Positions 985 through 38,773 of a stretch of 64,000 nt of DNA are shown in pieces (position 1 is the first letter of the stretch; every line of letters begins with the position of its first letter). Source of the stretch: Bacteroidales bacterium (lineage in GTDB: Bacteria; Bacteroidota; Bacteroidia; Bacteroidales; F082); NCBI GenBank assembly GCA_017477425.1, contig JAFUVT010000006.1, positions 2,161 to 66,160 of the forward strand, written 5' to 3'. The translations under genes were made by a program, and so were the position numbers. The notes below the pieces were generated by a model. That model was not told the origin of the DNA, did not search any database, and saw nothing but the letters and a program-made list of their open reading frames with translations.

Positions 985-2478
985 TTAGGGTATGAACCGC
1001 ACTAACTTCTTATTGACCCGAGGAAGAAGACCCGCCATGATTTCCTTGTAGGAAACCTTGGCAATCAGACATGCTACATAGTAGATAACGCCAAACAGCG
1101 CAACGGTTATGGCGGCTAATACAAATTTGTTGACCACGATGAAGAACGTGAGCGCATAGGCTATGCCCGTTGATGCCAGACAAGCGACAAGTATCATGGT
1201 CAGTTCCTTAACAGGGATAAGCTGACGCATAGGACGCTGGGCATAGTCGGCTACAACACGCATCATGAGATAGAGCTTAAACACCTGGCAACACTCAGAG
1301 ATAACAGCTAAAGCAACAGGTGAGTCTATCGTCTTGACAAAACCAAACTCTAACACCACAATCAGTATGGCTGTCACCATGTGAATATTGGCAAAAGCCT
1401 TTGTCCTTCCGATGGCGAGCATTATGGGCGCAAACGGAACTATATAAAAGAGGCTGCTAATGTTCTTGATCATGAAATAGACACCAGAAGCGTCATAGAT
1501 GTCGCCATACAGGCAGACCATTATCAGACGGGCAAAGACAACGGAGAAAATCAGAATCGGGAAAATAATCTTGGCGGATTTGACCAGTGCCGACCGCCAG
1601 AGGGCAAGCACCTCCTCCTTTTTGTCGCTGTTGCCATTTTCTAACTCAGACAGTCTTGGCAGCAACACGGCGGCCACAGCGGAGACGACCATCGTAGCGA
1701 AAGGTATCTCCATAAAGCCGTTGGAGAAGTCGGCAAACTCCTCATTGCCATAGTAGCGACTAATGAAGAACTGCGTGGCGGAGGTGATGATAAGTCCCCA
1801 GATGGAGGCATACAGCAACGGCAGGGAGAATGAAAGTATCTTCTTGTAGGTCAGGTCGGATTTTTGGTGCGTTTCATGGCGCACTGGAGCATCCTTCATC
1901 CATAGGGCGATAACGAATATCAGGAAGGAGGCCACATCGAAACCGACGATGGCATGGATATAGTTGCCATTGAACAGAAACACAGGAAGAACGGTAATAC
2001 CCACTTTCAGCACACGAGTAGCCACGGTATAGATGGCCAGGTACTGCGTCTTGCGGAACGAAGCATAGATGCCGTCGAGACCGAAGGAAGGCAACAAAAA
2101 GAAGGGCGTGGGCGAGAATACCTTCAAGGCCAATGACAAGTCATCATTGTTTAACCACTTGGCAATAAGGCCTGACCCAAAGAATATGACCAACGAGAAC
2201 ACAATACCCATCAGGAAAAACAGGTTGGTGATCTTGTTGATGATATCTTTCGAGTAGGTATTGTCATACTTTGGCAGGAAATAGGAGTAAGCACGAGGCA
2301 GTCCTATGGTAAAGACCGTAACAAGCGATGAATAGACAAACATCACCTGTTTGTAAGTCCCGTAGTCAGCCTTGGTGAAAACACGGCTGAGAATCATGGG
2401 ACTCACAATGGCTACCAAGAAGGAGAAGAAACTCCCGATGCCTATCCAAAGTGCCTGACGTGAGTTATTTGTTGACAT
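985..2478 (-). CDS. wzx: Polysaccharide/oligosaccharide flippase (Wzx, MOP superfamily)
   Basis: 497 aa with about 12-14 predicted TM segments. The N-terminus, WIGIGSFFSFLVAIVSPMILSRVFTKADYGTYKQVMF, is typical of polysaccharide biosynthesis/flippase proteins. Lies in a capsule-locus context. Confidence 0.8.
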   Translation of the reverse strand: MSTNNSRQALWIGIGSFFSFLVAIVSPMILSRVFTKADYGTYKQVMFVYSSLVTVFTIGLPRAYSYFLPKYDNTYSKDIINKITNLFFLMGIVFSLVIFFGSGLIAKWLNNDDLSLALKVFSPTPFFLLPSFGLDGIYASFRKTQYLAIYTVATRVLKVGITVLPVFLFNGNYIHAIVGFDVASFLIFVIALWMKDAPVRHETHQKSDLTYKKILSFSLPLLYASIWGLIITSATQFFISRYYGNEEFADFSNGFMEIPFATMVVSAVAAVLLPRLSELENGNSDKKEEVLALWRSALVKSAKIIFPILIFSVVFARLIMVCLYGDIYDASGVYFMIKNISSLFYIVPFAPIMLAIGRTKAFANIHMVTAILIVVLEFGFVKTIDSPVALAVISECCQVFKLYLMMRVVADYAQRPMRQLIPVKELTMILVACLASTGIAYALTFFIVVNKFVLAAITVALFGVIYYVACLIAKVSYKEIMAGLLPRVNKKLVRFIP

Positions 2479-2494
2479 ATATGATATTATCTTC

Positions 2495-3418
2495 TTATTT
2501 TACGATGTATTTAGCGTTCTTTCTCTCGTTCTTGAGAAAACGTTTGAAGCCGGGAAACAGTTTTTGGGTGTTGATGAAGATGTTCTGCTTGTACTGCCAT
2601 GCTTCCTTCAACATCATCCAAAGTTTTGAAAAACCGTACTCTCTACTCTGATATAGGAAATGGATAACCATTGCCTGATGTTTCCCTAGTTTTTCGCTTT
2701 TAAGTAATTGATTACGCCTGAGTGCAACTAAATACCTTGAATGAAGTACTTCAAAATCACGACGTTTTGTAAGACTTCCGCTTGATACCGTGACAACATA
2801 GGCATCTGCATCTATTGCAGATATGCTTTTCGCTAAGAGGCCGGCTTTTGTTGCAAACATTGCGTCATTAGCCGCCCTCACTTCATCAAATGTAATACTA
2901 TTCTCTTTCACCAGAGAATGTCGTATCATTTTTGCCCATGGCACAATATGCTTTATTCTTAGAGATAGTTCATCTTCTTTTTCAAGATAATCAATTATCA
3001 TCTTGGAATAAGGTTCTGCCCTATCGGAATACTCGCCTGTATCAGTATATATACCTGTTGACTTAAAAAAAACGATATCAGCTTGTGTATTTAACTGCTT
3101 TTGGAATAAGTCAAATGCCCCTTCTGTAAAATAATCATCAGCATCGGAAAAGATTAACCATTTCCCGGTAGCAGCTTCAAGCCCCACATTCCGTGCACCC
3201 CCAGCATGACGGGACGGCTCTGACCAGAGAAGTTTATAATCGCGCTCGACTCCAATCTCTTCCTTGGTCACTGGCGTAGGAGTATTATCAACCACGATAA
3301 TCTCAATCCTGTCCGAAACGGGTATGCTGTTGAACAGTCTTGGCAACGTCTGGATCGAATTCCGCTGCGGTATAATGACCGAGAAATCCACATTATTTGA
3401 ACTCGCTTCTTTTTCCAT
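2495..3418 (-). CDS. Family 2 glycosyltransferase
   Basis: FSVIIPQRNS...IIVVDNTPTP...IFSDADDY is the GT2 DxD architecture. The likely start is M36 (MEKEASS) at 3418; the ORF-track start at 3523 adds an unlikely Cys/Arg-rich extension. AT-rich. Confidence 0.8.
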   Translation of the reverse strand: MEKEASSNNVDFSVIIPQRNSIQTLPRLFNSIPVSDRIEIIVVDNTPTPVTKEEIGVERDYKLLWSEPSRHAGGARNVGLEAATGKWLIFSDADDYFTEGAFDLFQKQLNTQADIVFFKSTGIYTDTGEYSDRAEPYSKMIIDYLEKEDELSLRIKHIVPWAKMIRHSLVKENSITFDEVRAANDAMFATKAGLLAKSISAIDADAYVVTVSSGSLTKRRDFEVLHSRYLVALRRNQLLKSEKLGKHQAMVIHFLYQSREYGFSKLWMMLKEAWQYKQNIFINTQKLFPGFKRFLKNERKNAKYIVK

Positions 3419-3614
3419 ATAAATATCTTGTTTTCTACATAGGATTGTTCCACTTTCCGGCAGAAGGATCTGATGACGAAAACCATCTGTGCATGGAGGG
3501 TTTCGGCAAATCAAATCCAGCATGTTAACTGTTAACCGTTAATTGCTTTTATTGTTCTGGCAGGCAGTATCGAACTGCAAACTTCCGTTCCACCTATGCT
3601 GCCAGAAAGGTTGT

Positions 3615-4370
3615 TTAGATATGCTCCTCAAAGCCTCTGAAGTGAACATTCAGTTCATGCAGATGCTCCAACAGCGTTCCCAGCGGGGTTCCGGCAGTCA
3701 TCTTGGCAAAGGCGTTGACATCCTTGGGGAAGCACTTACCACCATAACCGAACTTACCGTCAGGGCCGGGGACGTAAGTGTGGGTATCGTTGATATAGCC
3801 AGAAAGCAGCACGCCCGTGTGCACCTTGCGCCAGTCAGCCCCCATTTGCTCGCAGTACTCGCGACAGGCGTTGAAATAGGTGACCTTATAGGCCCCGAAC
3901 ACGTTGTGCATGTACTTGGTGAGCTCTGCCTCTAACGGGGTCATGACGGTAAACTTCTTGCCCACGAAGATCTTGGTGAGCAGTTCGTGGGCTCCGGTGA
4001 AGACCATGGTCTGCTTGCGGAAGTCCTCAAGGTGTGTACGCTCGGTGAGGAACTCGGGCATGTAGCATACCTGATGGCCGTTATCCTTGGAGAGGCGGTC
4101 ACTGGTGCCGGGAAGGATGGTGGTGCGCACGAAGACGGGCACATCGGGGAGCTTGGTGATGAGTTCCTTCATCAGCGTGAGGTCCTGCGTGCCGTCGTCC
4201 TCGGTGGGGACGTGGATCTGCAGGAACGCGATATCGATACCACTCAGGTCATCGTTGTAACCCTTGGGAGGGTCGCTGATGAACAGTTTACACTCGGGGT
4301 TGTTATGCTCCAACCAGTCTTTCAAGGCTCCGCCTACGAAGCCGCATCCGATAATTCCAACGTTAATCAT
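3615..4370 (-). CDS. Short (251 aa) UDP-glucose/GDP-mannose dehydrogenase-family-like protein, copy 1
   Basis: N-terminal Rossmann motif VGIIGCGFVGGAL and the catalytic-Cys motif GYGGKCFPKDVNAF of nucleotide-sugar dehydrogenases. It lacks the usual C-terminal UDP-binding domain. Paralog of 13073..13828. Confidence 0.6.
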   Translation of the reverse strand: MINVGIIGCGFVGGALKDWLEHNNPECKLFISDPPKGYNDDLSGIDIAFLQIHVPTEDDGTQDLTLMKELITKLPDVPVFVRTTILPGTSDRLSKDNGHQVCYMPEFLTERTHLEDFRKQTMVFTGAHELLTKIFVGKKFTVMTPLEAELTKYMHNVFGAYKVTYFNACREYCEQMGADWRKVHTGVLLSGYINDTHTYVPGPDGKFGYGGKCFPKDVNAFAKMTAGTPLGTLLEHLHELNVHFRGFEEHI

Positions 4371-4446
4371 TGTGTGTATGTTTTAGTGTTTATTGTTTTA
4401 GTTAGTTGTTGTTTGGTTAAGAAGAATCAAGGGATATGAATCATGG

Positions 4447-4643
4447 GACGGTTCCTCGATCACTTTTCTCTATTCTAACTTGTTAATCACTCCATAAGTT
4501 ACTCTTGTGAGCCGTGAGAGCTGGCGCAGACCAACACCCAGTTCCAAGTAGCTCATGATAAGCTCGTTTCTCTTATCTTTCTCCAGTTCATGCACCTTTA
4601 TCGGGTCTGCTGCAGAATCGTAGAATCGGGAGACGGTTCCTTG
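4447..4643. repeat. 197-bp direct repeat, copy 1 (partner at 7495..7692)
   Basis: Aligned by eye to 7495..7692, about 90+% identical. Both copies begin and end with GACGGTTCCT. Contains most of the small HTH ORF 4470..4676. Confidence 0.8.
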
Positions 4644-4676
4644 CACTTTGGTTGCTTGGTTCAGACGTGTTATCAC
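4470..4676 (-). CDS. Small helix-turn-helix ORF (possible remnant of a resolvase/transposase/sigma-like HTH)
   Basis: 68 aa ending GVGLRQLSRLTRVTYGVINKLE, which looks like an HTH. It lies inside a repeat whose second copy has no ATG start, so it may be a gene fragment. Confidence 0.3.
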   Translation of the reverse strand: MITRLNQATKVQGTVSRFYDSAADPIKVHELEKDKRNELIMSYLELGVGLRQLSRLTRVTYGVINKLE

Positions 4677-4777
4677 GACACAATGTCGCGAAAGATGTCG
4701 CGAAAAACATTGTCGTAATAATCAAAACAAATATTCGCGACACAATGTCGTAAAAAGAGTCGCAATTGTTCTCTTCT

Positions 4778-6298
4778 CTAATCCTTACTATCTTCTGCAA
4801 CGACATAAACGGTTCCCCTTCCTTCACCCCTACGCTCTATTCTTTTCTTTTCAACAAGTGATTTCATCAACCGCTCTGCCGTCTTTTTCTCCAACTTAAG
4901 ATATTCTTCTACATTTTTTCTGGTTGTTTCTCCGTTTAAACGGATAAAGTCAAATGCTTTCCTTTCTTTCTCTGTCAACTTATCTTCACTGACACCCTCA
5001 GTGTTTCGTGACAAAACAAACGAAAGATAAGGTGCTTCCCATTTTGCTACAGGCAGAGGAAAGCTATATACATCAGGCAAATCCCGCATGGTTTTGAACC
5101 CCAAACCTCTCTGCTCAGACAAATTCATAACACCAAACACGAACATCATTCTGGGATTACGACTTATCGTTGGAGCCGAAAAGTTGTTTATTTGTTCCAG
5201 AGTTATAGGTTCTACAGGGTATCCAGGCGACTTTACAACTATCTCACGACTACTGATTGTAAGATAGATTGGAGAACCAGAAATCTCATACTGGCGATGT
5301 ATGATGGCATTGATAAGTACTTCTCTTATCACCTTCAAAGGATAATCATATATGGGTTGTCTTTCCGGGTGCGACCGATCTATTTGCTTGCCTATTTTTT
5401 GTTCATACCATTGATAAGCATTGTCAGGTTGCTTCACCAATGGGCCTACAATGTCGACAATATCACCTTCAGTGCCATCATCATTTATGAATGTAGCCTT
5501 GATGATTGCATTGGGGAACGACACTTCAGGATGCTTTCCGAACAACAATAATCCTGTACCGGACGGAACATACCCATTTTTGGTCGAGACCAAAATGCCA
5601 AATTGTGTAAGCAGCTGCATACATTCCCTCTCACCAAACTTTACATCCCATCCCGCTTTATCCAAAAAGGCTTGAACAAGTTCCGTATCAAGCGATTCAA
5701 GGGTACAATTCTTGACAGGTGCATCAAGCGTGCCTTCTGCCTCTTTCATCTTTTTAGATTCATCTTTTGCGAGTAGGCTCCTTTCGTTTGCCGCATTAAG
5801 GAATTCCGCATTACATTTCCTGATTTCTTCTTGAAGATCTCTGTCAAACAGAGCAACTTCAACGCCATGCGTTTTAAGGTGGTCACAGCCTTTGCCACTG
5901 ACAGTCGGGTCTGGATCTTCTATACCATAATACACTTTGGCAATACGTGCATTAGTAATGCGTTCAGCACACGAAAGCTTCGGTGACTTCCTTGCTCCTG
6001 GAGCACATGGCTCAAGAGTGGCAAATAGTATAGCCCCAGTAAGATTTTGGTCTCTACACTTGCGTTCAATGAGAGTATATTCTGCATGGTCTCCCTCTCG
6101 CAGTTCACCCCGGTAGGCTGTTTCTATGGTTCCATCTGGTTTGACAATAAGTGCACCAACTTTGGGCGTTGGCTTTCCGTCTTCCCTAACTTCGGCTACG
6201 GAGTTCTTCATTACATTCACCACCTCCTCCATATACCTTCTAATCTGTTCCTTCGTCAGTTCTATCATAGTATGTATTAATGTATTGTTACAAATCAA
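4778..6298 (-). CDS. Fusion protein: RibD/CDA-fold zinc deaminase + AlbA_2-like region + HATPase_c_4 (RecG-C-like) + C-terminal winged helix
   Basis: The deaminase has the HAE (DHAEYTLIE) and PC...C (TLEPCAPGARKSPKLSCAE) zinc motifs. GLLLFGKHPEVSFPNAIIKA is AlbA_2-like. REVLINAIIHRQYEISGSPIYL...RNPRMMFVFGVMNLSEQRGLGFKTM matches HATPase_c_4. The C-terminus FDFIRLNGETTRKNVEEYL...RGEGRGTVYVV is a wHTH. The start may be M11 (6268). Confidence 0.7.
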   Translation of the reverse strand: MICNNTLIHTMIELTKEQIRRYMEEVVNVMKNSVAEVREDGKPTPKVGALIVKPDGTIETAYRGELREGDHAEYTLIERKCRDQNLTGAILFATLEPCAPGARKSPKLSCAERITNARIAKVYYGIEDPDPTVSGKGCDHLKTHGVEVALFDRDLQEEIRKCNAEFLNAANERSLLAKDESKKMKEAEGTLDAPVKNCTLESLDTELVQAFLDKAGWDVKFGERECMQLLTQFGILVSTKNGYVPSGTGLLLFGKHPEVSFPNAIIKATFINDDGTEGDIVDIVGPLVKQPDNAYQWYEQKIGKQIDRSHPERQPIYDYPLKVIREVLINAIIHRQYEISGSPIYLTISSREIVVKSPGYPVEPITLEQINNFSAPTISRNPRMMFVFGVMNLSEQRGLGFKTMRDLPDVYSFPLPVAKWEAPYLSFVLSRNTEGVSEDKLTEKERKAFDFIRLNGETTRKNVEEYLKLEKKTAERLMKSLVEKKRIERRGEGRGTVYVVAEDSKD

Positions 6299-6382
6299 TT
6301 TCTTATCTTTGCATCATACCTTTGGCACCTTCGAAAAACAGGGGACGGGGCTTTGATCCGTCAATTGCAATTCGATTCTTTA

Positions 6383-7291
6383 TCATATTTGCAATAAGCC
6401 CCCAAAATCACTTTTCATTCGTTCCAAGGCAAAAGATTCCGATTCTGCCACCTCTCCCAGTGTAGTGTTAACAACTGCCTTGATTGACAAAGAAGGGTCT
6501 TCTGAAAGTAGCCGTATAAACACCTTTGCAATTTTGGAATCCACTCTATATGAAGCAGTGAATTGTTGACCAAATTCAAGTTTTACTGGATAGCTGTTGG
6601 TATCTATTACTGTTAATATGCTGAAAGCATCAGCATTTCCATCAAAGGGTCTTGACATTTTAAAGAAAGGCTCTTGAAAGTATCGATGTTCCTTTGATGA
6701 GTTGGTGACAGTTACCCTGATTTGCAATCCTCTTTTGCCAGAATACATATAATTATATGTCTCAAACACATGGTAAAAACTTAAATAAACTAAGGCCACA
6801 GTATCTTTTCTTTCTCCATGTTTCAATGTTGTCGATCTAAGTACACTAGGAAGCGGCCTCTCGTTTTGCAGAGCCTCTACCATCTCCTTGATAACAGTAT
6901 CGTATTGACTATCATCCGTCATGTCATCGCCTTTCCTGCCTTGAAGAATCGGTGGAAATGACGTCTCGAAAGTTCCTGCCCGTAAGACGGGGTAGTATTT
7001 TGTCGTATCAATATCATTCATCATCTCTGCACCGATAATCGACTCCTCAAATGCCACCCCTTTGCCTGTTTCGGCTTTTTGCTTGTATTGAGGCGTACCA
7101 ATAACCAGAACTTTATCCGCCTTCGACAAGCCAAGCTCCATAAAACGAGTGAAAGAAGAACCCTTGGGCATGTACTGGTCGAGAAGGATTTCAAAACCAC
7201 CCAAGGCCGACAAATCATCGGCAAATTTCTTCACCCATGCTTTATGCTCTTCACTATCGTGTGAATATGAAATAAAAATCACTTTAGCCAT
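6383..7291 (-). CDS. SEFIR/TIR-like domain protein with an uncharacterised ~160-aa C-terminal domain
   Basis: The N-terminus KVIFISYSHDSEEHKAWVKKFADDLSALGGFEILLDQ...VLVIGTPQYKQKA...GVAFEESII...YYPVLRAG matches the bacterial SEFIR/TIR_2 pattern. AT-rich. Confidence 0.7.
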   Translation of the reverse strand: MAKVIFISYSHDSEEHKAWVKKFADDLSALGGFEILLDQYMPKGSSFTRFMELGLSKADKVLVIGTPQYKQKAETGKGVAFEESIIGAEMMNDIDTTKYYPVLRAGTFETSFPPILQGRKGDDMTDDSQYDTVIKEMVEALQNERPLPSVLRSTTLKHGERKDTVALVYLSFYHVFETYNYMYSGKRGLQIRVTVTNSSKEHRYFQEPFFKMSRPFDGNADAFSILTVIDTNSYPVKLEFGQQFTASYRVDSKIAKVFIRLLSEDPSLSIKAVVNTTLGEVAESESFALERMKSDFGGLLQI

Positions 7292-7494
7292 ATTTCTATT
7301 ATTTCAGTTACAAAACACAGATCGGGGTCTGGCTTTTTGCTTGTTTTCCCTGTTATTGCCCTAAGCTATTTATTTCTTTAAAAGTCTCTGTCAAGCGTTC
7401 AACCTACCAGGAGCCGACTTTCCCATGAGCTTTTCTTCAGATGTTCGGACATCTATCTGAATATTAAAAATTGGATCATGAATCAGAATCAGAA

Positions 7495-7692
7495 GACGGT
7501 TCCTCGATCACTCTTCTCCAATCTAACTTGTTAATCACTCCATAAGTTACTCTTGTGAGCCGTGAGAGCTGGCGCAGACCAACACCCAGTTCCAAGTAGC
7601 TCGTGATAAGCTCGTTTCTCTTATCTTTTTCCAGTTCTTGCACCTTTATCGGGTCTGCTGCAGAATCGCAGAATCAGGGGACGGTTCCTTGA
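7495..7692. repeat. 197-bp direct repeat, copy 2 (degenerate copy of the HTH ORF, no ATG start)
   Basis: Aligns with 4447..4643. The reading frame is retained (..DPIKVQELEKDKRNELITSYLELGVGLRQLSRLTRVTYGVINKLD..), but both Met start codons of copy 1 (M1 and the internal M41, which reads ITSYLELG here) and the stop are changed. Confidence 0.8.
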
Positions 7693-7706
7693 TCCGTAAT
7701 AACTTG

Positions 7707-7997
7707 TCAGTTATCCTTCAAAGCAGAAAGTATGCCCACTCTTATGCTAGTTTTTATCTGTTCTGTTGCCGAAACGATAACGACTTTTTCAAAAAAGCTA
7801 GCTTGCCCCATTTTTTTACAAAGCTGTCCAAATATCTGTTTGGCACAGAAAGTGGCCATTGTTTTAACATCTTGCATGTCAATTGTTACAGAACCTTCTT
7901 CTTCAATGCAATCGCTAATTGTCTTGTATATTCTACTGCCCAGTTCTTCGTCACTGATTATAGTTCCAAAATCTTTTATTATTATTATCGTGTTCAT
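7707..7997 (-). CDS. 96-aa STAS-like (DUF4325-like) protein, cassette A
   Basis: Small alpha/beta-type sequence with an IDMQDV motif followed by Thr49. Its start overlaps the stop of the upstream ATPase gene (ATGA). Same length and motif layout as 11652..11942. Confidence 0.6.
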   Translation of the reverse strand: MNTIIIIKDFGTIISDEELGSRIYKTISDCIEEEGSVTIDMQDVKTMATFCAKQIFGQLCKKMGQASFFEKVVIVSATEQIKTSIRVGILSALKDN

Positions 7998-8938
7998 TGA
8001 AAATTGATTAATAAGTCATTTAATTGTTCATTGTTTTTTTCGATATCATCAATCGTAATCGGATTAGTCAAAAAGAGTTTTACATACACTATTGTCCCAT
8101 GCCATGTCGCAGAAGTGTAAAAACGCGTTTTGCCTGCCATGTTCTCATAGCAATACTCTTCTGACCGCAATAAGAATCGGCTTCCCGATTTGGTGACTAT
8201 TTCGTTGATAAGCCACAACCCATACCCCATGTGGTTGCTACCTTTTTTTGAGGTTACGTCTTTTTTTAATGCCATCTTCAACGCATCTTCTTTTTTGCAA
8301 CGCGGAAATGCATCTGTAATGCTTTTTACAACCCCTTCGCCAGAATCGGCACATGCAATCTCAATCATTTCCTGGTTTCCATGGGCAACAATAACAGACT
8401 TCGAGTCGCCCAAGGCATGAGCCCAGAAGTTCAAAAACATCTCTGAAAAAACAGTGAAGATCATCGCGTTGACCTTATGATTATGATAATAACCCTCAAT
8501 CTTCCGCGAATAATCGTTATTCAAGTAGTCGGAAGAGCTGGTCTCCTTCAGTAATGCCATAGGAGCGATGATAAAATCATCGGAAACACTTACCTGTAAG
8601 TTTTTGTATTGTCTATCTGAATCCTTGTTTTTCTTCAAGTCGTCTATTAAATTTTTGAACCCATAGTAGGCCACTCGGTCTCTAATAGTTCTGTTTTCTT
8701 CATAATTCAGAAGACAAGGGTTGAAAAAACACTTGTTGACAACTGAATAATCCAAAAACTTATATAGGATAAGCAGCCCTAATAAGTCAAGTTCGACCAC
8801 GTCTTGAAAATCCAAGTAGAAAGAATGCTTTTGTAATTGTTTGTATCTATAAAAACAGCCTAACTTTCTTATGATTTCGTCATCGTAGTTTTTGACCATC
8901 CTGCTTGGAACCTTTAATATTGTAGGGCTATTGGCCAT
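7994..8938 (-). CDS. GHKL (histidine-kinase-like/SpoIIAB-RsbW-like) ATPase with an N-terminal STAS-like region, cassette A
   Basis: Bergerat-fold boxes: N box SEMFLNFWAHA, G1 ADSGEGV, G2 GYGLWLINEI. The N-terminal LDFQDVVELDLLGLLILYKF is STAS-like. Overlaps both neighbouring genes. Confidence 0.65.
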   Translation of the reverse strand: MANSPTILKVPSRMVKNYDDEIIRKLGCFYRYKQLQKHSFYLDFQDVVELDLLGLLILYKFLDYSVVNKCFFNPCLLNYEENRTIRDRVAYYGFKNLIDDLKKNKDSDRQYKNLQVSVSDDFIIAPMALLKETSSSDYLNNDYSRKIEGYYHNHKVNAMIFTVFSEMFLNFWAHALGDSKSVIVAHGNQEMIEIACADSGEGVVKSITDAFPRCKKEDALKMALKKDVTSKKGSNHMGYGLWLINEIVTKSGSRFLLRSEEYCYENMAGKTRFYTSATWHGTIVYVKLFLTNPITIDDIEKNNEQLNDLLINFQ

Positions 8939-9422
8939 AGTACAATTTATGGTATTCGTCGAATAATTTTTCTTCCTTTTTTAGATCTTTTTTTGTTAAA
9001 TCTGAATTAATCCTTTTATAATAGTCCAGAATGGTTATTGAATGATGATATATTTTCTTTGAATAGAAAATCCTGTTTTTCGACATAAGACATTCCACAT
9101 TGGAAATGTTATCTAGCAATGTATGTTCTTCTCCCTTTGTAAACAGCGATATCTTTTCCAATTTTTCAAACAATTCAGCTTCTTTTTCAATTGATAATTC
9201 CGTGATTTTCCTTGTCCTATAATGCTCGTTTTCCTTCTTGCCGTTACTTCTATCCAAGAAAAACTTCACTATTATCAAAAGAAGATTTATCAGAACTATA
9301 ACAAGAATCCATATAGAAGAACCTGTCCAACTGCTATTACTTACTTCATTTGATACCGAATCTGAATTCATAGAAGTAAATTGCTCAACGCCTATTTGTA
9401 TTAAAACCAGTAAATTGTTCAT
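8928..9422 (-). CDS. Single-pass membrane protein with a charged helical cytoplasmic tail, cassette A
   Basis: 164 aa. One TM helix (IWILVIVLINLLLIIVKFFL) followed by a K/E-rich helical region. 11-nt overlap with the downstream ATPase gene. No homology recognised. Confidence 0.5.
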   Translation of the reverse strand: MNNLLVLIQIGVEQFTSMNSDSVSNEVSNSSWTGSSIWILVIVLINLLLIIVKFFLDRSNGKKENEHYRTRKITELSIEKEAELFEKLEKISLFTKGEEHTLLDNISNVECLMSKNRIFYSKKIYHHSITILDYYKRINSDLTKKDLKKEEKLFDEYHKLYYGQ

Positions 9423-9618
9423 TGTTAATATTTTTGCATTATTTCGTTATTGTTTATGGTTTTTGAACCAAAAGTAGTCCATTTTTCCGTTTTCCCAAAA
9501 TTCCCAGTCGCACCTGCCAAGCGCAGGAGGACACAGAAGACTAGCCGTTAGCTCCCCATCCTTCTTCAAGGCTCCGCCCCGTTAATCACATTTCGTGGCG
9601 ACAAATGGCTGTTGATCA

Positions 9619-9690
9619 ATAAATTGATTCAGAATCCATTTTTTGGTCCTTTTTGGTCCTTTTGGTCTGAAACGTCTTCTGCAAATATAG
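9619..9690 (-). promoter_or_regulatory. Promoter-leader module A (TATATTTG -7 box plus conserved leader hairpin)
   Basis: The minus strand reads TATATTTGCAGAAGAC..TTCAGACC..GGACCAAAAAGGACCAAAAAATGGATTCTGAATCAATTTAT. The -7 box is the reverse complement of 9682..9689. The same module occurs at 12851..12920 and 14021..14090. Confidence 0.5.
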
Positions 9691-9742
9691 TAAAAAAACT
9701 GGGTCATAAACAAACAAATTATTGGTCGGTTTTTTGCTTTTC

Positions 9743-9806
9743 AAGCCGCCTCCCACAGATGCCCGCTCTCCCATGGGCCCACGTTGGCATGACATGGGAG
9801 GCTAAC
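9743..9806. repeat. 64-bp hairpin repeat element, copy a (type 1 centre)
   Basis: CAAGCCGCCTCCCACAGATGCCCGCTCTCCCATGGGCCCACGTTGGCATGACATGGGAGGCTAAC. The arms GCCTCCCA/TGGGAGGC and ATGCC/GGCAT can pair. Confidence 0.8.
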
Positions 9807-9856
9807 TGTCAGCCATCCGTTAATTCTTTGGACACAGCGCTTCTTAATGATAAACT

Positions 9857-10072
9857 TCATACCTTTGCGTATTCCTCATGGATGGCAGCGTGAACCATAG
9901 CACGTGCCTCTTCAATACTCATTGTCTCTTCATCTTCCATTCGCATTTGCTGCATACGGTGGTCAACAAGTTCCTGTGCCCATAGGCGAATGGCTGCCGT
10001 GGTGTCCAGCTCCGGGCGCATGTCCCGAAGCGCAGCCTCATCGACGTTTATACTTACCATGCACATAGTCAA
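9857..10072 (-). CDS. Hypothetical 71-aa acidic protein
   Basis: GC3-rich ORF. A TAACTTTG -7 box (reverse complement of 10093..10100) lies about 20 nt upstream of its ATG. No confident family assignment. Confidence 0.35.
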   Translation of the reverse strand: MTMCMVSINVDEAALRDMRPELDTTAAIRLWAQELVDHRMQQMRMEDEETMSIEEARAMVHAAIHEEYAKV

Positions 10073-10164
10073 ATCGATTTATGTTTGTTTTTGCAAAGTT
10101 ACTACTTTTCAATCTCATTCAGAGGAATCAAGGAATCAGGGGAAGATTCCTTTGTCCATTTTTT

Positions 10165-10229
10165 CAAGCCGCCTCCCATAGATGCCCGCTCTCACACAAG
10201 CCTGCATCGGCATGACATGGGAGGCTAAC
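10165..10229. repeat. 64-bp hairpin repeat element, copy b (type 2 centre)
   Basis: CAAGCCGCCTCCCATAGATGCCCGCTCTCACACAAGCCTGCATCGGCATGACATGGGAGGCTAAC. Ends 3 nt before the epimerase stop codon. Confidence 0.8.
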
Positions 10230-10232
10230 CGA

Positions 10233-11276
10233 TTAGGCCAAATAAAACTCCTTATACCACTCCGCGAACTTCCGCAAGCCCTCTCTCAACGTAATCTTCG
10301 GAGTAAATCCAAAATCCCTTTCCAATGCCGTGGCATCGGCGTATGTGGTAGGCACGTCGCCAGGCTGCATCGGGACGAGTTCCTTGTGCGCCTCGAAGTC
10401 GTAGTCTTGCGGCAATACGCCCGCACGAACCAATTCCTCTTGGAGGATGGTCACAAAATCCAACAGGTTCTCGGGCTGGCCGCCGCCGATGTTATATATC
10501 TTATATGGTGGAATCGGCAGACCATCCTCGCCCATCTTGCGTTCTGGGGCTTTGGCCATCACGCGTACAATGCCTTCAACGATGTCGTCAACGTAGGTGA
10601 AGTCGCGGCGGCAGTTGCCGTAGTTGTAGATCTGTATCTTCTCGCCTTTCACCAACTTGTTCGTGAAACCGAAATAGGCCATGTCGGGGCGACCCGCAGG
10701 ACCATAGACCGTGAAGAAACGCAAACCCGTGGTGGGAATGTCGTAAAGCTTGCTATAACAGTGCGCAAAGAGTTCGTTGCTCTTCTTGGTGGCGGCATAA
10801 AGGCTCACGGGATTGTCAACGCGGTCGTCAACCGAGAAAGGCACTTTCTTGTTGCCGCCATACACGCTGCTGGAACTGGCATAGACCAGATGCTGCACGG
10901 GATGATGACGGCAGGCTTCGAGGACGTTGTAGAAGCCAATGATGTTGCTCTCGATGTAAGCATCAGGATTCTCGATGCTGTAGCGCACACCAGCTTGGGC
11001 GGCGAGGTTCACCACGATGTCGAAGTGGTATTGCTCGAAGAGACTATCGATAAGGGCCTTGTCGGCAAGGTTGCCTTTGATGAACGTCCAATGGTTATCA
11101 ACATCCTTGGCGGTTTCTTCTATTTGCGCCAGCCGATATGCCTTCAGCCGCACATCGTAATAGTCGTTGATGCTATCAAGGCCGACGATATGAATGTCAT
11201 TTTCGGTCTTCAGCAATCGAAGTGCCAGATTGGCGCCGATGAAACCGGCGGCACCAGTGAGAAGTATATTTTTCAT
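10233..11276 (-). CDS. NAD-dependent nucleotide-sugar epimerase (UDP-glucuronate 4-epimerase-like, SDR family)
   Basis: MKNILLTGAAGFIGANLALRLL (GxxGxxG), YAATKKSNE (YxxxK), 347 aa. Resembles Cap1J/WbnF-type UDP-GlcA epimerases. Confidence 0.8.
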   Translation of the reverse strand: MKNILLTGAAGFIGANLALRLLKTENDIHIVGLDSINDYYDVRLKAYRLAQIEETAKDVDNHWTFIKGNLADKALIDSLFEQYHFDIVVNLAAQAGVRYSIENPDAYIESNIIGFYNVLEACRHHPVQHLVYASSSSVYGGNKKVPFSVDDRVDNPVSLYAATKKSNELFAHCYSKLYDIPTTGLRFFTVYGPAGRPDMAYFGFTNKLVKGEKIQIYNYGNCRRDFTYVDDIVEGIVRVMAKAPERKMGEDGLPIPPYKIYNIGGGQPENLLDFVTILQEELVRAGVLPQDYDFEAHKELVPMQPGDVPTTYADATALERDFGFTPKITLREGLRKFAEWYKEFYLA

Positions 11277-11326
11277 GCTTTGTTTTTGTTAAGAATCAAG
11301 AATCAGGGGTCGGTTCCTTGATCCGC

Positions 11327-11463
11327 TATCCGCCTCCCCCAGATACCCGCTCTCCCTCGGGCCCACGTTGGCATGACATGGGAGGCTAACTTCCAACTGA
11401 ACAACTGAACAACTCCCAACTAAAATACAGCTTCGCTCCGTCAGTCACATTCCGTGGTGACAA
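11327..11463. repeat. Composite repeat: hairpin element copy c + (CAACTGAA)2 + conserved leader block
   Basis: TATCCGCCTCCCCCAGATACCCGC...GGCATGACATGGGAGGCTAAC, then TTCCAACTGAACAACTGAACAACTCCCAACTAAAA, then CAGCTTCGCTCCGTCAGTCACATTCCGTGGTGACAA. Collinear with 13859..14006. Confidence 0.8.
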
Positions 11464-11651
11464 GGGTTTGGTATTTAATGAGTTATAAACTCTGTTCACA
11501 ACAAGGTATTGAAGATGAACTTTGTTCTTATCGTGCAAAGATAAGGATTTATTTTTTGAGAATTGAAAAAAATTACCAACACTCATGAGCGGGACAACCA
11601 GCTTCCGCAATTTCACAAAACATACGGTCAAAAACTTTCGCCATCAACCTA

Positions 11652-11942
11652 TCATGCAGTAACCCCATACTTGACAATATAATCTCTAAGACGCATAGCT
11701 TGTTGTTTGGTAATCATTGTAAATACCATATTATTCTTCAACTTGTCTACCCCCCACTCGTCAATAAGTCGGCCTATAGACACATTCAAGAAGACCGAAG
11801 GCAATGCGGTAACGTCTGACATGTCAACAATAACCTTATCAGAATCCTCCATTCCTTTCACAATCTGTGAATAAAACAAGTTGCCCGCTTCGGGTAGCAG
11901 TGTCGAGGAATCCATTATGTCCTTTAATACTATTGTACACAT
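11652..11942 (-). CDS. 96-aa STAS-like (DUF4325-like) protein, cassette B
   Basis: VDMSDV motif at residues 39-44 followed by Ser49, the same layout as 7707..7997. Lies downstream of the GHKL ATPase gene. AT-rich. Confidence 0.6.
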   Translation of the reverse strand: MCTIVLKDIMDSSTLLPEAGNLFYSQIVKGMEDSDKVIVDMSDVTALPSVFLNVSIGRLIDEWGVDKLKNNMVFTMITKQQAMRLRDYIVKYGVTA

Positions 11943-12026
11943 GTTTTTTATCTATTTAGTTAAAAAAATCAAATTCATCAATAATTTCCTCATCATCCAT
12001 TTGAGACAAGTCTATCTCATAATATA

Positions 12027-12839
12027 TTAGTGCCCAGGGAAAGACATCTCACAATAAAAGCCTTCAATAATTCCATCATGCTTGTAAACCAATCCGTTAT
12101 GGCTAAATATCCTTGCTTCCTTCGCTGGAGCTATGATAATACTTAATCCCATACCTTTGTTTCTATCCGTCGATTTCACCGTGAAATTATCTTCCAGAGC
12201 TTTAAGGATAGCATCTTTATCGTTTGTTATATCTTTGTCAAAATCACTTACAGATTGCGCAATTCCTATGCCAAAATCGGAAACTGCAACATGTAAAATG
12301 CTTGTTTCTTTGTCATATTGAATCAAAGAAAACGCATTCCCTTTAGCATGTGCATGATCAAAAACATTATAATAAGCTTCAACCAAACCAACAGAAACTA
12401 CACTTAAATCCTTGTTTGTAAAATATGTTCTTCTTAAGTATTCCTCTACTCGTTTTGCATATAAGTCTTTCTCGGGTTCTGTAATTCTCCACAAATTGAA
12501 AACGCTCTCATGAGTTGGTGCTTCTACATAATTCTTCCCTCCTCTCCAATATTCCGAAAACCCCAAATCCTTATATATATACTGAAAAACATCTTGGTTA
12601 TTCTTAGAAATAAACACATTCATTTTAAGGTCAATCAAAAAATGAATCAAGCAAGCAAGAGTAACCAAATGAAATGGTTTGATTTTATCAGGAGCGATAG
12701 CTGTATCAAAGTCAAATACAATGTCATGAGTTGATATGACACCACTATGGCAATTATACTCATTATGAACTTTTGTTATGGTCTCAAGCCAATAACTTCT
12801 TTCGGTATTTTGAAACACTATCTTCGTTTCTCTTTTCAT
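12027..12839 (-). CDS. GHKL (SpoIIAB/RsbW-like) ATPase with an N-terminal STAS-like region, cassette B
   Basis: N box LVEAYYNVFDHAHAKG, G1 VSDFGIGIAQSV, G2 DRNKGMGLSIIIA. The N-terminal IVFDFDTAIAPDKIKPFHLVTLACLIHFL is STAS-like. 270 aa. Confidence 0.65.
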   Translation of the reverse strand: MKRETKIVFQNTERSYWLETITKVHNEYNCHSGVISTHDIVFDFDTAIAPDKIKPFHLVTLACLIHFLIDLKMNVFISKNNQDVFQYIYKDLGFSEYWRGGKNYVEAPTHESVFNLWRITEPEKDLYAKRVEEYLRRTYFTNKDLSVVSVGLVEAYYNVFDHAHAKGNAFSLIQYDKETSILHVAVSDFGIGIAQSVSDFDKDITNDKDAILKALEDNFTVKSTDRNKGMGLSIIIAPAKEARIFSHNGLVYKHDGIIEGFYCEMSFPGH

Positions 12840-12850
12840 AGCATCACTAG

Positions 12851-12920
12851 ATAAGTTGACTCAGAATCCATTTTTGGTCCATTTTGGTCCATTTCATCTG
12901 AATTGTCTTCCGCAAATATA
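12851..12920 (-). promoter_or_regulatory. Promoter-leader module B
   Basis: The minus strand reads TATATTTGCGGAAGACAATTCAGATGAAATGGACCAAAATGGACCAAAAATGGATTCTGAGTCAACTTAT and ends 12 nt before the ATG at 12839. The -7 box is the reverse complement of 12913..12920. Confidence 0.5.
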
Positions 12921-12974
12921 GTGAGAAAAGCTGTGACACAAACAAATTTTTTGGGTGGTTTTTTTGTGTTTTCC

Positions 12975-13036
12975 TATCCGCCTCCCCTAGATGCCCGCTC
13001 TCACACAAGCCTACGTCGGCATGACACGGGAGGTTG
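12975..13036. repeat. 64-bp hairpin repeat element, copy d (type 2 centre)
   Basis: TATCCGCCTCCCCTAGATGCCCGCTCTCACACAAGCCTACGTCGGCATGACACGGGAGGTTGC. Confidence 0.8.
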
Positions 13037-13072
13037 CGGACAATGGTTCCAAGCAGCGGAATAGACTTGAAA

Positions 13073-13828
13073 CTAAATGTGTTCCTCCACGCCCCTGAAA
13101 TGCACATTCAACTCATGAAGATGCTCCAAAAGTGTTCCGAGCGAAGTGCCCTCGGTCATCTTGGCGAAGGCGTTCACGTCCTTCGGGAAGCACTTGCCAC
13201 CGTAGCCGTATTTGCCATCGGGACCAGGGACGTAGGTATGCGTGTCGTTGATATAGCCAGAGAGCAACACACCCGTGTGCACCTTGCGCCAGTCGGCACC
13301 CATCTGCTCGCAGTACTCACGGCAGGCGTTGAAATAAGTCACCTTGTAGGCGCCGAAGACGTTGTGCATGTACTTGGTCAGCTCGGCCTCCAACGGGGTC
13401 ATCACGGTGAACTTCTTGCCGACGAAGATCTTGGTGAGCAGCTCGTGGGCACCGGTGAAGACCATCGTCTGCTTCTTGAAGTCTTCGATGAAGGTGCGCT
13501 CGGTCAGGAACTCGGGCATGTAGCACACCTGATGATGGGTCTCCCGCGAAAGCATCTCGCTGGTGCCTGGAAGGATGGTGGTGCGCACAAACACGGGCAC
13601 GTCCGGAAGCTTGGTGATGAGCTCCTTCATCAGCGTCAAGTCCTGCGAACCGTCGTCCTCGGTGGGGACATGGATCTGCAGAAAAGCAATGTCGATATTA
13701 CTCAAGTCATCATTATACCCCTTGGGCGGGTCGCTGATGAACAGTTTGCACTCTGGGTTGTTGTGTTCCAACCAGTCCTTGAGGGCTCCGCCTACGAAGC
13801 CACATCCGATAATTCCAACGTTAATCAT
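13073..13828 (-). CDS. Short (251 aa) UDP-glucose/GDP-mannose dehydrogenase-family-like protein, copy 2
   Basis: Same length as 3615..4370 and differs at only about 15-20 residues. The DNA differs mostly at third codon positions, so both copies appear to be under purifying selection. Confidence 0.6.
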   Translation of the reverse strand: MINVGIIGCGFVGGALKDWLEHNNPECKLFISDPPKGYNDDLSNIDIAFLQIHVPTEDDGSQDLTLMKELITKLPDVPVFVRTTILPGTSEMLSRETHHQVCYMPEFLTERTFIEDFKKQTMVFTGAHELLTKIFVGKKFTVMTPLEAELTKYMHNVFGAYKVTYFNACREYCEQMGADWRKVHTGVLLSGYINDTHTYVPGPDGKYGYGGKCFPKDVNAFAKMTEGTSLGTLLEHLHELNVHFRGVEEHI

Positions 13829-13858
13829 ATTTTTATTAAATTGTTATTTTTCAAAATC

Positions 13859-14006
13859 CAAGCCGCCCCCCCCACAGATGCCCGCTCTCCCTCGGGCCGA
13901 GGCTGGCATGACATGGGAGGTTAACTTCCAACTGAACAACTGAACAACTGAACAACTCCCAACTAAAACACAGCTTCGCCAGGTCGGTCACATTCCATAA
14001 CGACAA
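13859..14006. repeat. Composite repeat: hairpin element copy e + (CAACTGAA)3 + conserved leader block
   Basis: Collinear with 11327..11463 but carries one extra octamer unit. Confidence 0.8.
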
Positions 14007-14020
14007 CTCCCTGTTTTCCA

Positions 14021-14090
14021 ATAAATTGATTCAGAATCCAACATAGGTTCTTATTGGCTTTATCTTTCTGAATACGTTCCCGCAAAAATA
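14021..14090 (-). promoter_or_regulatory. Promoter-leader module C
   Basis: The minus strand reads TATTTTTGCGGGAACGTATTCAGAAAG...GGATTCTGAATCAATTTAT (ATTCAGAA/TTCTGAAT stem). The -7 box is the reverse complement of 14083..14090. Confidence 0.45.
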
Positions 14091-14106: not shown

Positions 14107-14685
14107 TCAACCTTCAGCCAACATTATCTTCCTCCATCTCAAATACCCAAACACGGCGATGACGACATAAACGGCATAAAGCGAGGCCTTGAAAGGGATG
14201 TCCTTGTAGAAATAGAGCCCGCAGGTGACCACATCCACCACGATCCAAACGAACCACTGCTCCAGGTATTTTCGTGCCAAGGCCCAGATGCCTACGACGC
14301 TCAAGGCGGTGGTGAAGGCGTCGAGGACGGGGACGTTGCTGTTGGTGAAACGCGACAGCAGGAAATAGATGGCTACCCATATCAAGGCCGCGAGGCCGAG
14401 CCAAATGAAGGCTTTCTTGCGGGGCATGTGACGGATGGGCAAGTCGGTGGCCTTCTGCTTGTGGCGCATCCAGGCAATGAAGCCGTAGACGGTCATGGCC
14501 AGGTAGTAGAACTCCATGCCACAATCAGCGTAAAGGCCTTTTTGATAATACAATACGATGCCGAGGCTTTGCATCACGAAGCCTACGACCCACATCCAGA
14601 CGCTGGCCTTGTATTCCAAAAGGATGTAGGCCAGGCCAAGGGCCGTGGTGGTGATGTCGAGCCAATGGGCGGAGAGGAAATCCAT
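14107..14685 (-). CDS. pnuC: Nicotinamide riboside/mononucleotide transporter PnuC
   Basis: 192 aa, about 7 TM segments. LGLAYILLEYKASVWMWVVGFVMQSLGIVLYYQKGLYAD is typical of PnuC. Confidence 0.8.
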   Translation of the reverse strand: MDFLSAHWLDITTTALGLAYILLEYKASVWMWVVGFVMQSLGIVLYYQKGLYADCGMEFYYLAMTVYGFIAWMRHKQKATDLPIRHMPRKKAFIWLGLAALIWVAIYFLLSRFTNSNVPVLDAFTTALSVVGIWALARKYLEQWFVWIVVDVVTCGLYFYKDIPFKASLYAVYVVIAVFGYLRWRKIMLAEG

Positions 14686-30647: not shown

Positions 30648-30718
30648 AGGTACCTGGCGGACTCGAACCGCCGTCCCCGGTTTTGCAGACCGGTCCCTAA
30701 CCGCTCGGGCAAGGTACC
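30648..30718 (-). tRNA. tRNA-Cys (GCA)
   Basis: Folded by hand. Acceptor GGTACCT/AGGTACC, anticodon arm CCGGT-CTGCAAA-ACCGG, T arm GGCGG-TTCGAGT-CCGCC, U73 discriminator. CCA is not encoded. A TATCTTTG box lies upstream (reverse complement of about 30727..30734). Confidence 0.85.
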
Positions 30719-38765: not shown

Positions 38766-38773
38766 TCGATGCC

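Follow-up and report, generated by a model that had tools for sequence, protein, structure and literature searches.

Two described kinds of defence protein are closest to the genes reported here. The first combines a Schlafen domain with the GHKL ATPase domain PF13749; in a Schlafen-Argonaute protein, ATP binding to this domain drives tetramerisation and thereby assembles the active Schlafen nuclease, and E314 and N318 of RzAgo bind Mg and the gamma-phosphate (10.64898/2026.05.29.728809). The combination of SLFN and GHKL, termed the 'Schlatpase' supradomain, is present in 60,692 proteins, most of which are small and carry either no further domain or a short C-terminal helix-turn-helix (HTH) (10.64898/2026.05.29.728809). 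Proteins of the Schlafen-HisKinase-HTH type make up 19% of prokaryotic Schlafens (PMC13056530) and are considered to serve BREX loci as a backup effector (PMC12839542). The second is bSEFIR, which defends as a single protein: its N-terminal SEFIR domain depletes NAD+, and the D40A substitution abolished defence (10.1101/2022.05.11.491447; 10.1101/2024.02.11.579819). In this study, we analysed two adjacent genes in a stretch of 64,000 nucleotides (nt) from a Bacteroidales bacterium (assembly GCA_017477425.1, contig JAFUVT010000006.1; hereafter, the window). One encodes a SEFIR-domain protein of 302 amino acids (aa), and the other encodes a protein that joins a RibD-like zinc deaminase, a GHKL ATPase and a winged helix-turn-helix (wHTH), hereafter called the fusion. 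Our analysis indicates, with a probability of approximately 70%, that the two genes are independent single-gene defence modules that have been juxtaposed in a small defence islet within a capsule biosynthesis locus.

The two genes are adjacent on the same strand (Table 1), and the G+C content is 0.40-0.43 across the two-gene patch versus 0.50-0.58 over most of the window. An earlier note on this DNA, made from the sequence alone, had described two co-directional, AT-rich genes 84 nt apart, and the coordinates, strand and composition bear this out. Full-length homologues of the two open reading frames (ORFs) reach E = 0 and E = 7.7e-195, and both ORFs are therefore real genes. Because the homologues of the fusion begin with MIELTKEQ or MVELTKEQ, its true start may be the internal ATG given in Table 1, which would lengthen the spacer accordingly.

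Table 1. Positions of the two genes, their domains and surrounding features in the window
Feature	Position	Strand	Evidence
SEFIR-domain protein gene, 302 aa, single-gene bSEFIR-type candidate	6383..7291	(-)	ORF; Pfam TIR_2/SEFIR; PADLOC bSEFIR 2.6e-40; ~100 full-length homologue clusters
N-terminal SEFIR/TIR-fold domain, residues 4-148	6848..7282	(-)	5y8e match by family profile and fold; invariant D38, E82
C-terminal domain, residues ~163-302, predicted beta-sandwich, putative sensor	6386..6805	(-)	AlphaFold model; fold matches to Ig-like/beta-sandwich domains
Intergenic spacer, 84 nt (114 nt from ATG at 6268), holding the homology breakpoints of both genes	6299..6382	(-)	
Deaminase-GHKL-wHTH protein gene, 506 aa (496 aa from ATG at 6268)	4778..6298	(-)	ORF; Pfam; 2931 homologues
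RibD-like zinc deaminase domain, residues ~16-170	5789..6253	(-)	3zpc rmsd 2.7 A, 29% identity; phmmer to RibD 3.5e-14; invariant columns
Linker/N-terminal subdomain before GHKL core, residues ~190-315	5354..5731	(-)	Post-Schlafen part of PADLOC pAgo-associated models; well folded in model
GHKL (Bergerat-fold) ATPase core, PF13749, residues ~316-432, invariant E326 and N330	5003..5353	(-)	Pfam 1.4e-10; fold matches 3lmm, PDK kinases
C-terminal winged helix-turn-helix, residues ~440-502	4793..4981	(-)	Penicillinase_R/TrmB/MarR-type matches; co-linear with HTH of Schlafen-GHKL-HTH protein
Direct repeat copy 1, 206 nt	4438..4643	(.)	94% identical to 7486-7691
Direct repeat copy 2, 206 nt	7486..7691	(.)	
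Flippase	985-2478		
GT2	2495-3523		
Epimerase	10233-11276		
UDP-glucose dehydrogenase	16447-17745		

The independence of the two genes is indicated chiefly by the neighbours of each family. A scan of one genome per species yielded 501 loci of the fusion, the best 80 of which were fetched with +-10 kb; the fusion gene was called in 75 of these, and the upstream flank was at least 1 kb in 65 of the 75. A metagenome scan for the SEFIR family yielded 70 loci; the 302-aa architecture was present in 29 loci in total, of which 19 extend at least 1.6 kb downstream. No SEFIR homologue was detected by tblastn or phmmer in any of the 80 best species-level fusion loci, and the fusion was found in none of the 19 SEFIR loci with sufficient downstream sequence. 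The earlier note had proposed that the genes form a sensor/effector pair and had held that the pairing would be coincidental if the two families did not occur together elsewhere, which is what these loci reveal; the pair reading is thus not supported. The genes immediately beside the fusion, 136 in 75 species, included only one recurrent family, that of type I restriction-modification (R-M) subunits, and TIR/SEFIR was not among the 25 commonest neighbour families. Downstream of the SEFIR family, 13 unrelated groups of neighbours were distinguished, including RES, AAA_15/21 ATPases, HNH and a sugar nucleotidyltransferase; Mrr-nSTAND3 and a 114-aa ORF that precedes a PIN-domain gene are also found downstream, and the neighbours as a whole are heterogeneous over ~15 distinct contexts.

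The close relatives of the two genes, at 83-88% identity, occupy at least six other contexts. Relatives of the fusion have as neighbours an Eco57I-type methylase (L003, 85% identity), GIY-YIG, DpnII and UvrD/DUF2290 genes (L156, 88%) or PfkB/PRTase-CE and SIR2_2 genes (L157-L161, 83-85%), and relatives of the SEFIR gene have PRTase/DprA and PIN genes (L001, 84%) or KAP NTPase and MTES_1575 genes (L154, 87%), or, at 65-67% identity, are followed by Mrr_cat-nSTAND3 (L164-L167). All catalytic residues are retained in the close relatives of both genes in these other contexts. The nucleotide homology to the window ends at 6339 for the SEFIR relatives and starts at 6273 for the fusion relative, such that both breakpoints lie in the spacer. 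The arrangement of the window is repeated only in L155, a 3-kb contig that is 99.6% identical and must therefore derive from the same strain, representing no independent co-occurrence. An 84%-identical fusion relative in a Bacteroidaceae metagenome-assembled genome (MAG) (L004) has just 241 nt of upstream sequence and was uninformative for pairing.

The SEFIR protein matches Pfam TIR_2 (8e-12) and SEFIR (1.1e-10) at residues 5-125, and the PADLOC bSEFIR model (PDLC03957) matches residues 4-148 (E 2.6e-40). Its closest solved structure is the SEFIR domain of Bacillus cereus (5y8e), which is detected at E 3.9e-13 with the single sequence and at 4e-19 with the family profile, compared with 0.03 for the best TIR structure; 5y8e is also the top fold match (TM score 0.78, root-mean-square deviation (rmsd) 3.1 A). 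A SEFIR match stronger than the TIR match, as determined by HHsearch, is the criterion used in the original description of bSEFIR (10.1101/2022.05.11.491447); for the present protein, the solved structures favour SEFIR and Pfam places TIR_2 slightly ahead. In an alignment of 24 SEFIR-family members (40-87% identity), D38 and E82 are among the invariant columns. The former lies in the motif where D40 of bSEFIR is needed for defence; the latter aligns with a Glu of the B. cereus SEFIR protein and is the best candidate for the catalytic Glu of the domain. Because the alignments of the family to TIR NADases end at residue 73, short of E82, and the loop is modelled with low confidence, E82 stays a candidate only. 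A candidate for the catalytic Glu sought by the earlier note is accordingly present as an invariant residue of the family, but it could not be placed by alignment to TIR NADases.

The C-terminal ~140 residues of the SEFIR protein are modelled by AlphaFold as all-beta, with a predicted local distance difference test score (pLDDT) of 80-93, and the fold matches are Ig-like or beta-sandwich domains; no Pfam or NCBIfam family matches the C-terminal ~150 aa. The description of a SEFIR/TIR-type N-terminus followed by an unassigned C-terminal domain, given in the earlier note, therefore agrees with Pfam, PADLOC and 5y8e on the one hand and with the absence of a family match on the other. The protein resembles bSEFIR of Bacillus sp. 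NIO-1130 (Millman et al. 2022, 10.1101/2022.05.11.491447) in its N-terminal SEFIR domain, in its defence-island location, in being a single gene without a conserved partner and in its layout of an effector domain followed by a C-terminal putative sensor. However, only the N-terminal ~145 residues match, the C-terminus being an unrelated beta-sandwich of ~140 aa; the protein is also shorter than the 412 positions of the PADLOC model, and its host belongs to Bacteroidota. On these features, it is a candidate NADase of the bSEFIR type whose beta-sandwich C-terminus is new, and the invariant D38 and E82 are compatible with NAD+ depletion and phage protection. By analogy to the characterised Bacillus protein, the SEFIR domain would deplete NAD+ upon infection, and the beta-sandwich probably senses a phage component and then releases or oligomerises the SEFIR domain.

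Two further observations concern the SEFIR family. SEFIR N-domains were found on 15 viral contigs, which has no bearing on pairing. In L164-L167, a gene of ~766 aa (Mrr_cat-nSTAND3) begins 29-46 nt after the SEFIR relatives in two different genomic contexts; in L164 and L166, the SEFIR gene is located at 6001-6912, and the next gene is located at ~6941-9258.

In the fusion, Pfam detects dCMP_cyt_deam_1 at residues 22-125, HATPase_c_4/PF13749 at 341-417 and a wHTH at 441-501. The nearest solved relatives of the deaminase domain are the deaminase domains of RibD (3zpc, E 3.5e-14 by phmmer), and the AlphaFold model (pLDDT 80) fits those of 3zpc, 2hxv and 4g3m with an rmsd of 2.6-3.4 A and 28-30% identity; the rest of the model resembles DIP2311 (3lmm) and GHKL kinases (PDK kinases). 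The NCBIfam RibD model (TIGR00326) reaches 68.6 bits against a cut-off of 156.35, matching the deaminase part only, and the reductase domain is absent. Across 24 diverse homologues (46-85% identity), H71, E73, C98 and C110 of the zinc site (H71-A-E73, P97-C98 and C110, with the spacing C-x11-C) are invariant. R103 and K107 in the inter-cysteine loop, D128 and D130 in the DPDP motif, E326, N330 and the RGLGF motif are likewise invariant. Substrate recognition by RibG of Bacillus subtilis involves Lys79 of the inter-cysteine loop, which binds the phosphate, and the DPNP-motif residues Asp101 and Asn103, which bind the hydroxyls of the ribose (PMC8256712); R103/K107 and D128/D130 of the fusion are the corresponding phosphate- and ribose-binding positions. 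The conservation of these positions suggests that the substrate is a ribonucleotide-like small molecule rather than a polynucleotide. The domain thus shares with RibD/RibG the long Cys-Cys spacing, the P-x-V-G and DPxP motifs and the ribose/phosphate positions, but the fusion differs from these enzymes in its distance from the NCBIfam cut-off, in lacking the reductase domain, in its fusion to a GHKL-wHTH part, in an extra invariant RGELRxGDHAE motif and in a sporadic, mobile distribution.

PF13749 is present in all 24 fusion-family members, and none of them matches PF04326 (AlbA_2) at E<=1. An AlbA_2/Schlafen domain in the fusion, which the earlier note had placed behind the deaminase, was thus rejected, and the stretch concerned corresponds to a post-Schlafen linker: residues 175-363 align with the region after the Schlafen domain in PADLOC pAgo-associated models. 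The other parts of that domain assignment, namely the RibD-like zinc deaminase with its conserved zinc site, the GHKL ATPase and the winged helix, were retained in our analysis. In the fusion, the deaminase holds the position in which, according to the accompanying remark, such proteins usually have a Schlafen/AlbA_2 domain.

This relationship is best seen in a comparison with a true Schlafen-GHKL-HTH protein, the 458-aa product encoded in L142 (SLFN_AlbA_2 at residues 11-125, 1.2e-19; PF13749 at 283-374; HTH at 399-441). Residues 318-500 of the fusion align co-linearly with this protein (E 7e-15), and the layout of the fusion is thus that of Schlatpase-HTH proteins, except that a RibD-type deaminase stands where they have the Schlafen nuclease. 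The fusion resembles Schlafen-GHKL-HTH proteins (pSlfn-HisKinase-HTH; PMC13056530, 10.64898/2026.05.29.728809, PMC12839542; DIP2311, PDB 3lmm) in PF13749 with its Mg/ATP-binding E...N pair, in the preceding linker subdomain, in the C-terminal winged helix, in its size (~460-500 aa) and in its occurrence as a stand-alone gene in defence islands and R-M/BREX loci. The four-residue spacing of E326 and N330 is also that of E314 and N318 in RzAgo. In contrast, the fusion lacks the N-terminal Schlafen/AlbA_2 tRNA nuclease with its Ex4(E/D)xK motif (PF04326), and its effector chemistry, as predicted from the deaminase in that place, would be deamination and not RNA cleavage. No description of a deaminase-GHKL-wHTH architecture was found in the literature searched.

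The Schlafen-GHKL-HTH gene of L142 itself belongs to a tight tandem. On human-gut contigs, it is followed by an unannotated 590-aa gene and a gene for a 492-aa SEFIR protein (L142, 6748-11404; gaps of 25 and 5 nt), and the same three genes stand together in L137-L145, which represent one lineage (~89-99% mutually identical).

The fusion family was found in 501 of 185,579 species and is sporadically distributed among Bacteroidota, Verrucomicrobiota, Proteobacteria, Planctomycetota, Firmicutes and, in one MAG, the archaeal phylum Thermoplasmatota. It numbers 806 clusters at 50% identity (E<=1e-30, fragments included), and a homologue search with the protein gave 2931 matches. In 16 of the 75 species loci (~20%), the fusion gene is located inside or next to a type I R-M operon in the same orientation, and the order is hsdM-hsdS-X-hsdR or hsdS-X-hsdR in at least 7 of these. 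The position between hsdS and hsdR is seen in several phyla (L036, L039, L044, L046, L047, L049 and L057; ~10000-11500 in the full-flank loci). Genes for Vsr, Eco57I-type enzymes, prokaryotic Argonaute (pAgo; Piwi), integrases and SIR2 also occur directly beside the fusion. The fusion family is essentially absent from viral contigs, among which a single partial match (L168) was obtained; this has no bearing on pairing. The matching protein, encoded at 4282-5316 of a high-GC viral contig, consists of 344 aa, and its C-terminal half is a deaminase of the RGELRxGDHAEFTLLE/TLEPC subtype preceded by an unrelated N-terminal region of ~200 aa; the deaminase module therefore also exists in another architecture. 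In addition, an 86%-identical relative of the fusion beside capsule genes (L163, 258-1349) was called as 363 aa without the deaminase domain and is possibly a decayed copy.

The frequent location of the fusion relatives between hsdS and hsdR recalls a known arrangement, in that prrC sits between the specificity and restriction genes. The gene for the anticodon nuclease PrrC lies within a linked type I R-M locus, whose enzyme keeps the nuclease silent until phage anti-restriction factors unleash it (PMC2610378). The relatives of the fusion inside type I R-M operons would, by analogy, be ATPase-regulated latent-effector genes like those of PrrC and RloC (PMC2610378, PMC3458546), although the folds are unrelated (an ABC ATPase and a nuclease there versus GHKL and a deaminase in the fusion) and the copy in the window is not linked to an R-M system. 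This location suggests that the fusion may be a PrrC-like, second-line effector of abortive infection. By analogy with the Schlafen-Argonaute protein, the GHKL domain would cause oligomerisation upon binding ATP and would thereby assemble or activate the deaminase, which would act on a ribonucleotide-like small molecule.

We tentatively propose, at somewhat less than even odds, that the fusion family represents a new class of autonomous immune effector, in which an oligomerising scaffold switched by ATP has exchanged its Schlafen tRNA nuclease for a RibD-type deaminase and which, often guarded by type I R-M, would cause PrrC-like abortive infection by deaminating a ribonucleotide-like metabolite (less likely tRNA) that known defence systems do not target. 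Among the described deaminase effectors, the dCTP deaminase (10.1101/2021.04.26.441389) and the dCMP/dCTP deaminase AvcD (PMC10511110) have the same zinc site of the cytidine deaminase (CDA) fold (H-A-E, PC...C), and these two and the ATP deaminase Cad1, as presented in PMC13462974, are alike in being effectors that deaminate a nucleotide, as the fusion would. The fusion domain is, however, of the RibD type (C-x11-C, DPxP ribose motif) and not of the dCMP-deaminase type, and no PADLOC match to these families was obtained; none of the PADLOC deaminase-system models matches the fusion at E<=0.01. The regulatory module also differs, being GHKL-wHTH and not the kinase-like/P-loop domain, small RNA antitoxin or CARF domain given in those accounts of the three systems.

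It is conceivable that the fusion is not an immune protein and is instead a transcription regulator or metabolic enzyme carried on mobile DNA, for instance a ligand-modifying deaminase with a DNA-binding wHTH. Its wHTH resembles MarR/TrmB/BlaI-type repressors, the RibD-like domain is metabolic in origin, 59 of the 75 loci are not beside type I R-M, and some of the neighbours are housekeeping genes (tRNA synthetase, sugar genes). We consider this unlikely, because the family is spread sporadically over many phyla and into an archaeon, occurs in contexts that vary even between close relatives, is found repeatedly inside type I R-M operons or adjoining pAgo, Vsr, Eco57I and SIR2 genes, and uses a scaffold common to proven defence proteins; the low RibD score and the missing reductase domain also speak against such a role. 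The statement in the earlier note that both products carry domains used in anti-phage immunity remains valid, and both families occur in defence-island-like contexts.

As another alternative, the SEFIR protein could be a generic module with a variable downstream effector partner, i.e. the fusion here and RES, Mrr-nSTAND3, a PIN-domain gene or AAA ATPases elsewhere. The gene downstream of SEFIR is indeed often co-directional, with a gap of -12 to 150 nt, and the Mrr_cat-nSTAND3 neighbour recurs in two contexts. However, the downstream genes belong to families that are commonly found in defence islands by themselves, some have the opposite orientation (HNH, minus) or are housekeeping genes (sugar nucleotidyltransferase), and the SEFIR protein already has an effector and sensor layout like that of the single-gene bSEFIR. 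This explanation is therefore improbable.

Several observations weigh against two independent modules. The co-occurrence counts cover linked genes in the fetched loci. Both genes run in the same direction, no terminator-like site was found in the minus-strand spacer (6299-6382), and they could be co-transcribed. A scan of 4300-7800 for sigma-70 promoters and terminators gave no more matches than shuffled sequence, and such a scan is uninformative for Bacteroidota. The 206-nt direct repeat brackets exactly the SEFIR and fusion genes, which may have arrived as one unit. With regard to the individual proteins, the fusion copy in the window has no hsd genes nearby, the Pfam score of the SEFIR protein for TIR_2 (46.2 bits) is slightly above that for SEFIR (42.5 bits), the bSEFIR match covers positions 40-187 of the 412 in the model, i.e. 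the N-terminal third only, and the loop around E82 is modelled at low confidence (pLDDT <50 at residues 77-94), such that the catalytic role of this residue is putative.

The adjacency, the repeat and the tandem in the unrelated lineage L137-L145 would fit a two-gene system of Thoeris-like logic, with the SEFIR/TIR protein as the sensor of infection or the source of an NAD-derived signal and the fusion as the effector. The tandem is a lead and not support for the pair, given its single lineage, its other gene order and its other SEFIR C-terminus. That the repeat brackets exactly two genes indicates that the last insertion or duplication step may have moved both, which concerns their history and not their function. 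The absence of either family from the 80 and 19 informative loci of the other brings such a system close to refutation, and the intact relatives with other neighbours and the breakpoints between the genes point the same way. In addition, the characterised bSEFIR works alone, and the fusion consists of deaminase, GHKL and wHTH only, without a ThsA-like SIR2/transmembrane effector or a SLOG, Macro or SIR2 signal-binding domain. The Thoeris-like character suggested in the earlier note is likewise not supported, there being no ThsA-type partner and no conserved linkage of the two genes. The ThsB1 model reaches 17.3 bits (E 6.6e-4) on the SEFIR protein against 137.5 bits for bSEFIR (PADLOC). A two-gene system is thus very improbable, and we give hardly any credence to the notion that, in this strain, the SEFIR protein feeds the fusion an NAD-derived signal. 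Finally, membership of the SEFIR gene in the upstream operon (164-aa membrane protein, HATPase-like and STAS-like DUF4325 genes; 7707-9422) and not with the fusion is scarcely tenable, because, although all of the genes are co-directional and the order recurs in L155 (the same strain), SEFIR relatives at 84-87% identity lack this operon, a second HATPase/DUF4325 pair (11652-12839) has no SEFIR gene, the operon and the SEFIR gene are 415 nt apart with a repeat copy in the gap, and the few loci seen suggest that DUF4325/HATPase pairs and SEFIR genes do not co-occur.

The two independent modules that we favour lie within a polysaccharide (capsule/lipopolysaccharide) locus, to which the flippase, GT2, epimerase and UDP-glucose dehydrogenase genes of Table 1 belong, and relatives of both genes in other rumen or gut Bacteroidales are likewise located in polysaccharide loci (L001, L003, L163 and L166). 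In the window, a 251-aa UDP-glucose/GDP-mannose-dehydrogenase-like gene is duplicated at 3615-4370 and 13073-13828 and flanks an islet of ~9 kb. Both copies of the 206-nt direct repeat contain the 3' portion of a short HTH-like ORF (68 aa at 4470-4676, with the end ...SYLELGVGLRQLSRLTRVTYGVINKLE) and have GGAACCGTC sub-repeats at their edges; the repeat may mark a recombination or insertion site. Another, hairpin-bearing repeat of ~91 nt is present in five copies between gene cassettes (9717-9807, 10140-10230, 11301-11391, 12949-13039 and 13836-13926); it holds the inverted repeat CCTCCCA...ATGCC / GGCAT...TGGGAGG, is confined to a 4-kb stretch and has no Rfam match. These copies were considered as integron attC sites and rejected, as their terminal motifs, judged by eye, fit RYYYAAC/GTTRRRY poorly. 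Short repeats of 44-70 nt are interleaved at 9571-9662, 11394-11463, 12851-12894 and 13937-14064. The sole Rfam match over the whole window is a tRNA at 30648-30718.

Other candidates for defence genes are present in the window. Upstream of the SEFIR gene, a HATPase_c_2 histidine-kinase-like ATPase gene (314 and 270 aa, respectively) is twice followed by a 96-aa STAS-like DUF4325 gene (7707-9422 and 11652-12839), the first pair also having an overlapping gene for the 164-aa membrane protein. No PADLOC model matches these pairs, and DUF4325 is rarely mentioned in the literature; they may be an uncharacterised partner-switching defence or toxin module. A low-GC patch at 38196-39472 encodes an AbiEii-family nucleotidyltransferase toxin (232 aa, 6e-22) after a 189-aa ORF without a family match, and this is probably an AbiE-type toxin-antitoxin/defence pair. 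A gene for a PnuC-type nicotinamide mononucleotide transporter (14107-14685) adjoins the islet that holds the putative NAD+-depleting SEFIR gene, which is probably coincidental.

In this study, we found that the adjacency of the SEFIR and fusion genes is ordinary defence-island neighbouring, and the co-occurrence test illustrates why it would be an error to call such adjacency a 'system'. Many of these Bacteroidales defence genes are located within capsule loci, which may be of interest for the interplay between phages and capsules. The fusion family is widespread, undescribed and mechanistically tractable. It merits follow-up, as it occurs in at least 501 species of many phyla and is absent both from PADLOC and, as far as found, from the literature searched. 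Its members appear to have swapped the effector of the Schlafen/GHKL scaffold, for which the mechanism of ATP-driven assembly has recently been worked out, and through their frequent hsdS-X-hsdR position a PrrC-like link to R-M surveillance can be tested. If active, the fusion would add a RibD-type deaminase to the nucleotide-modifying immune effectors and would provide a second, chemically different read-out of infection sensing by GHKL-wHTH proteins.

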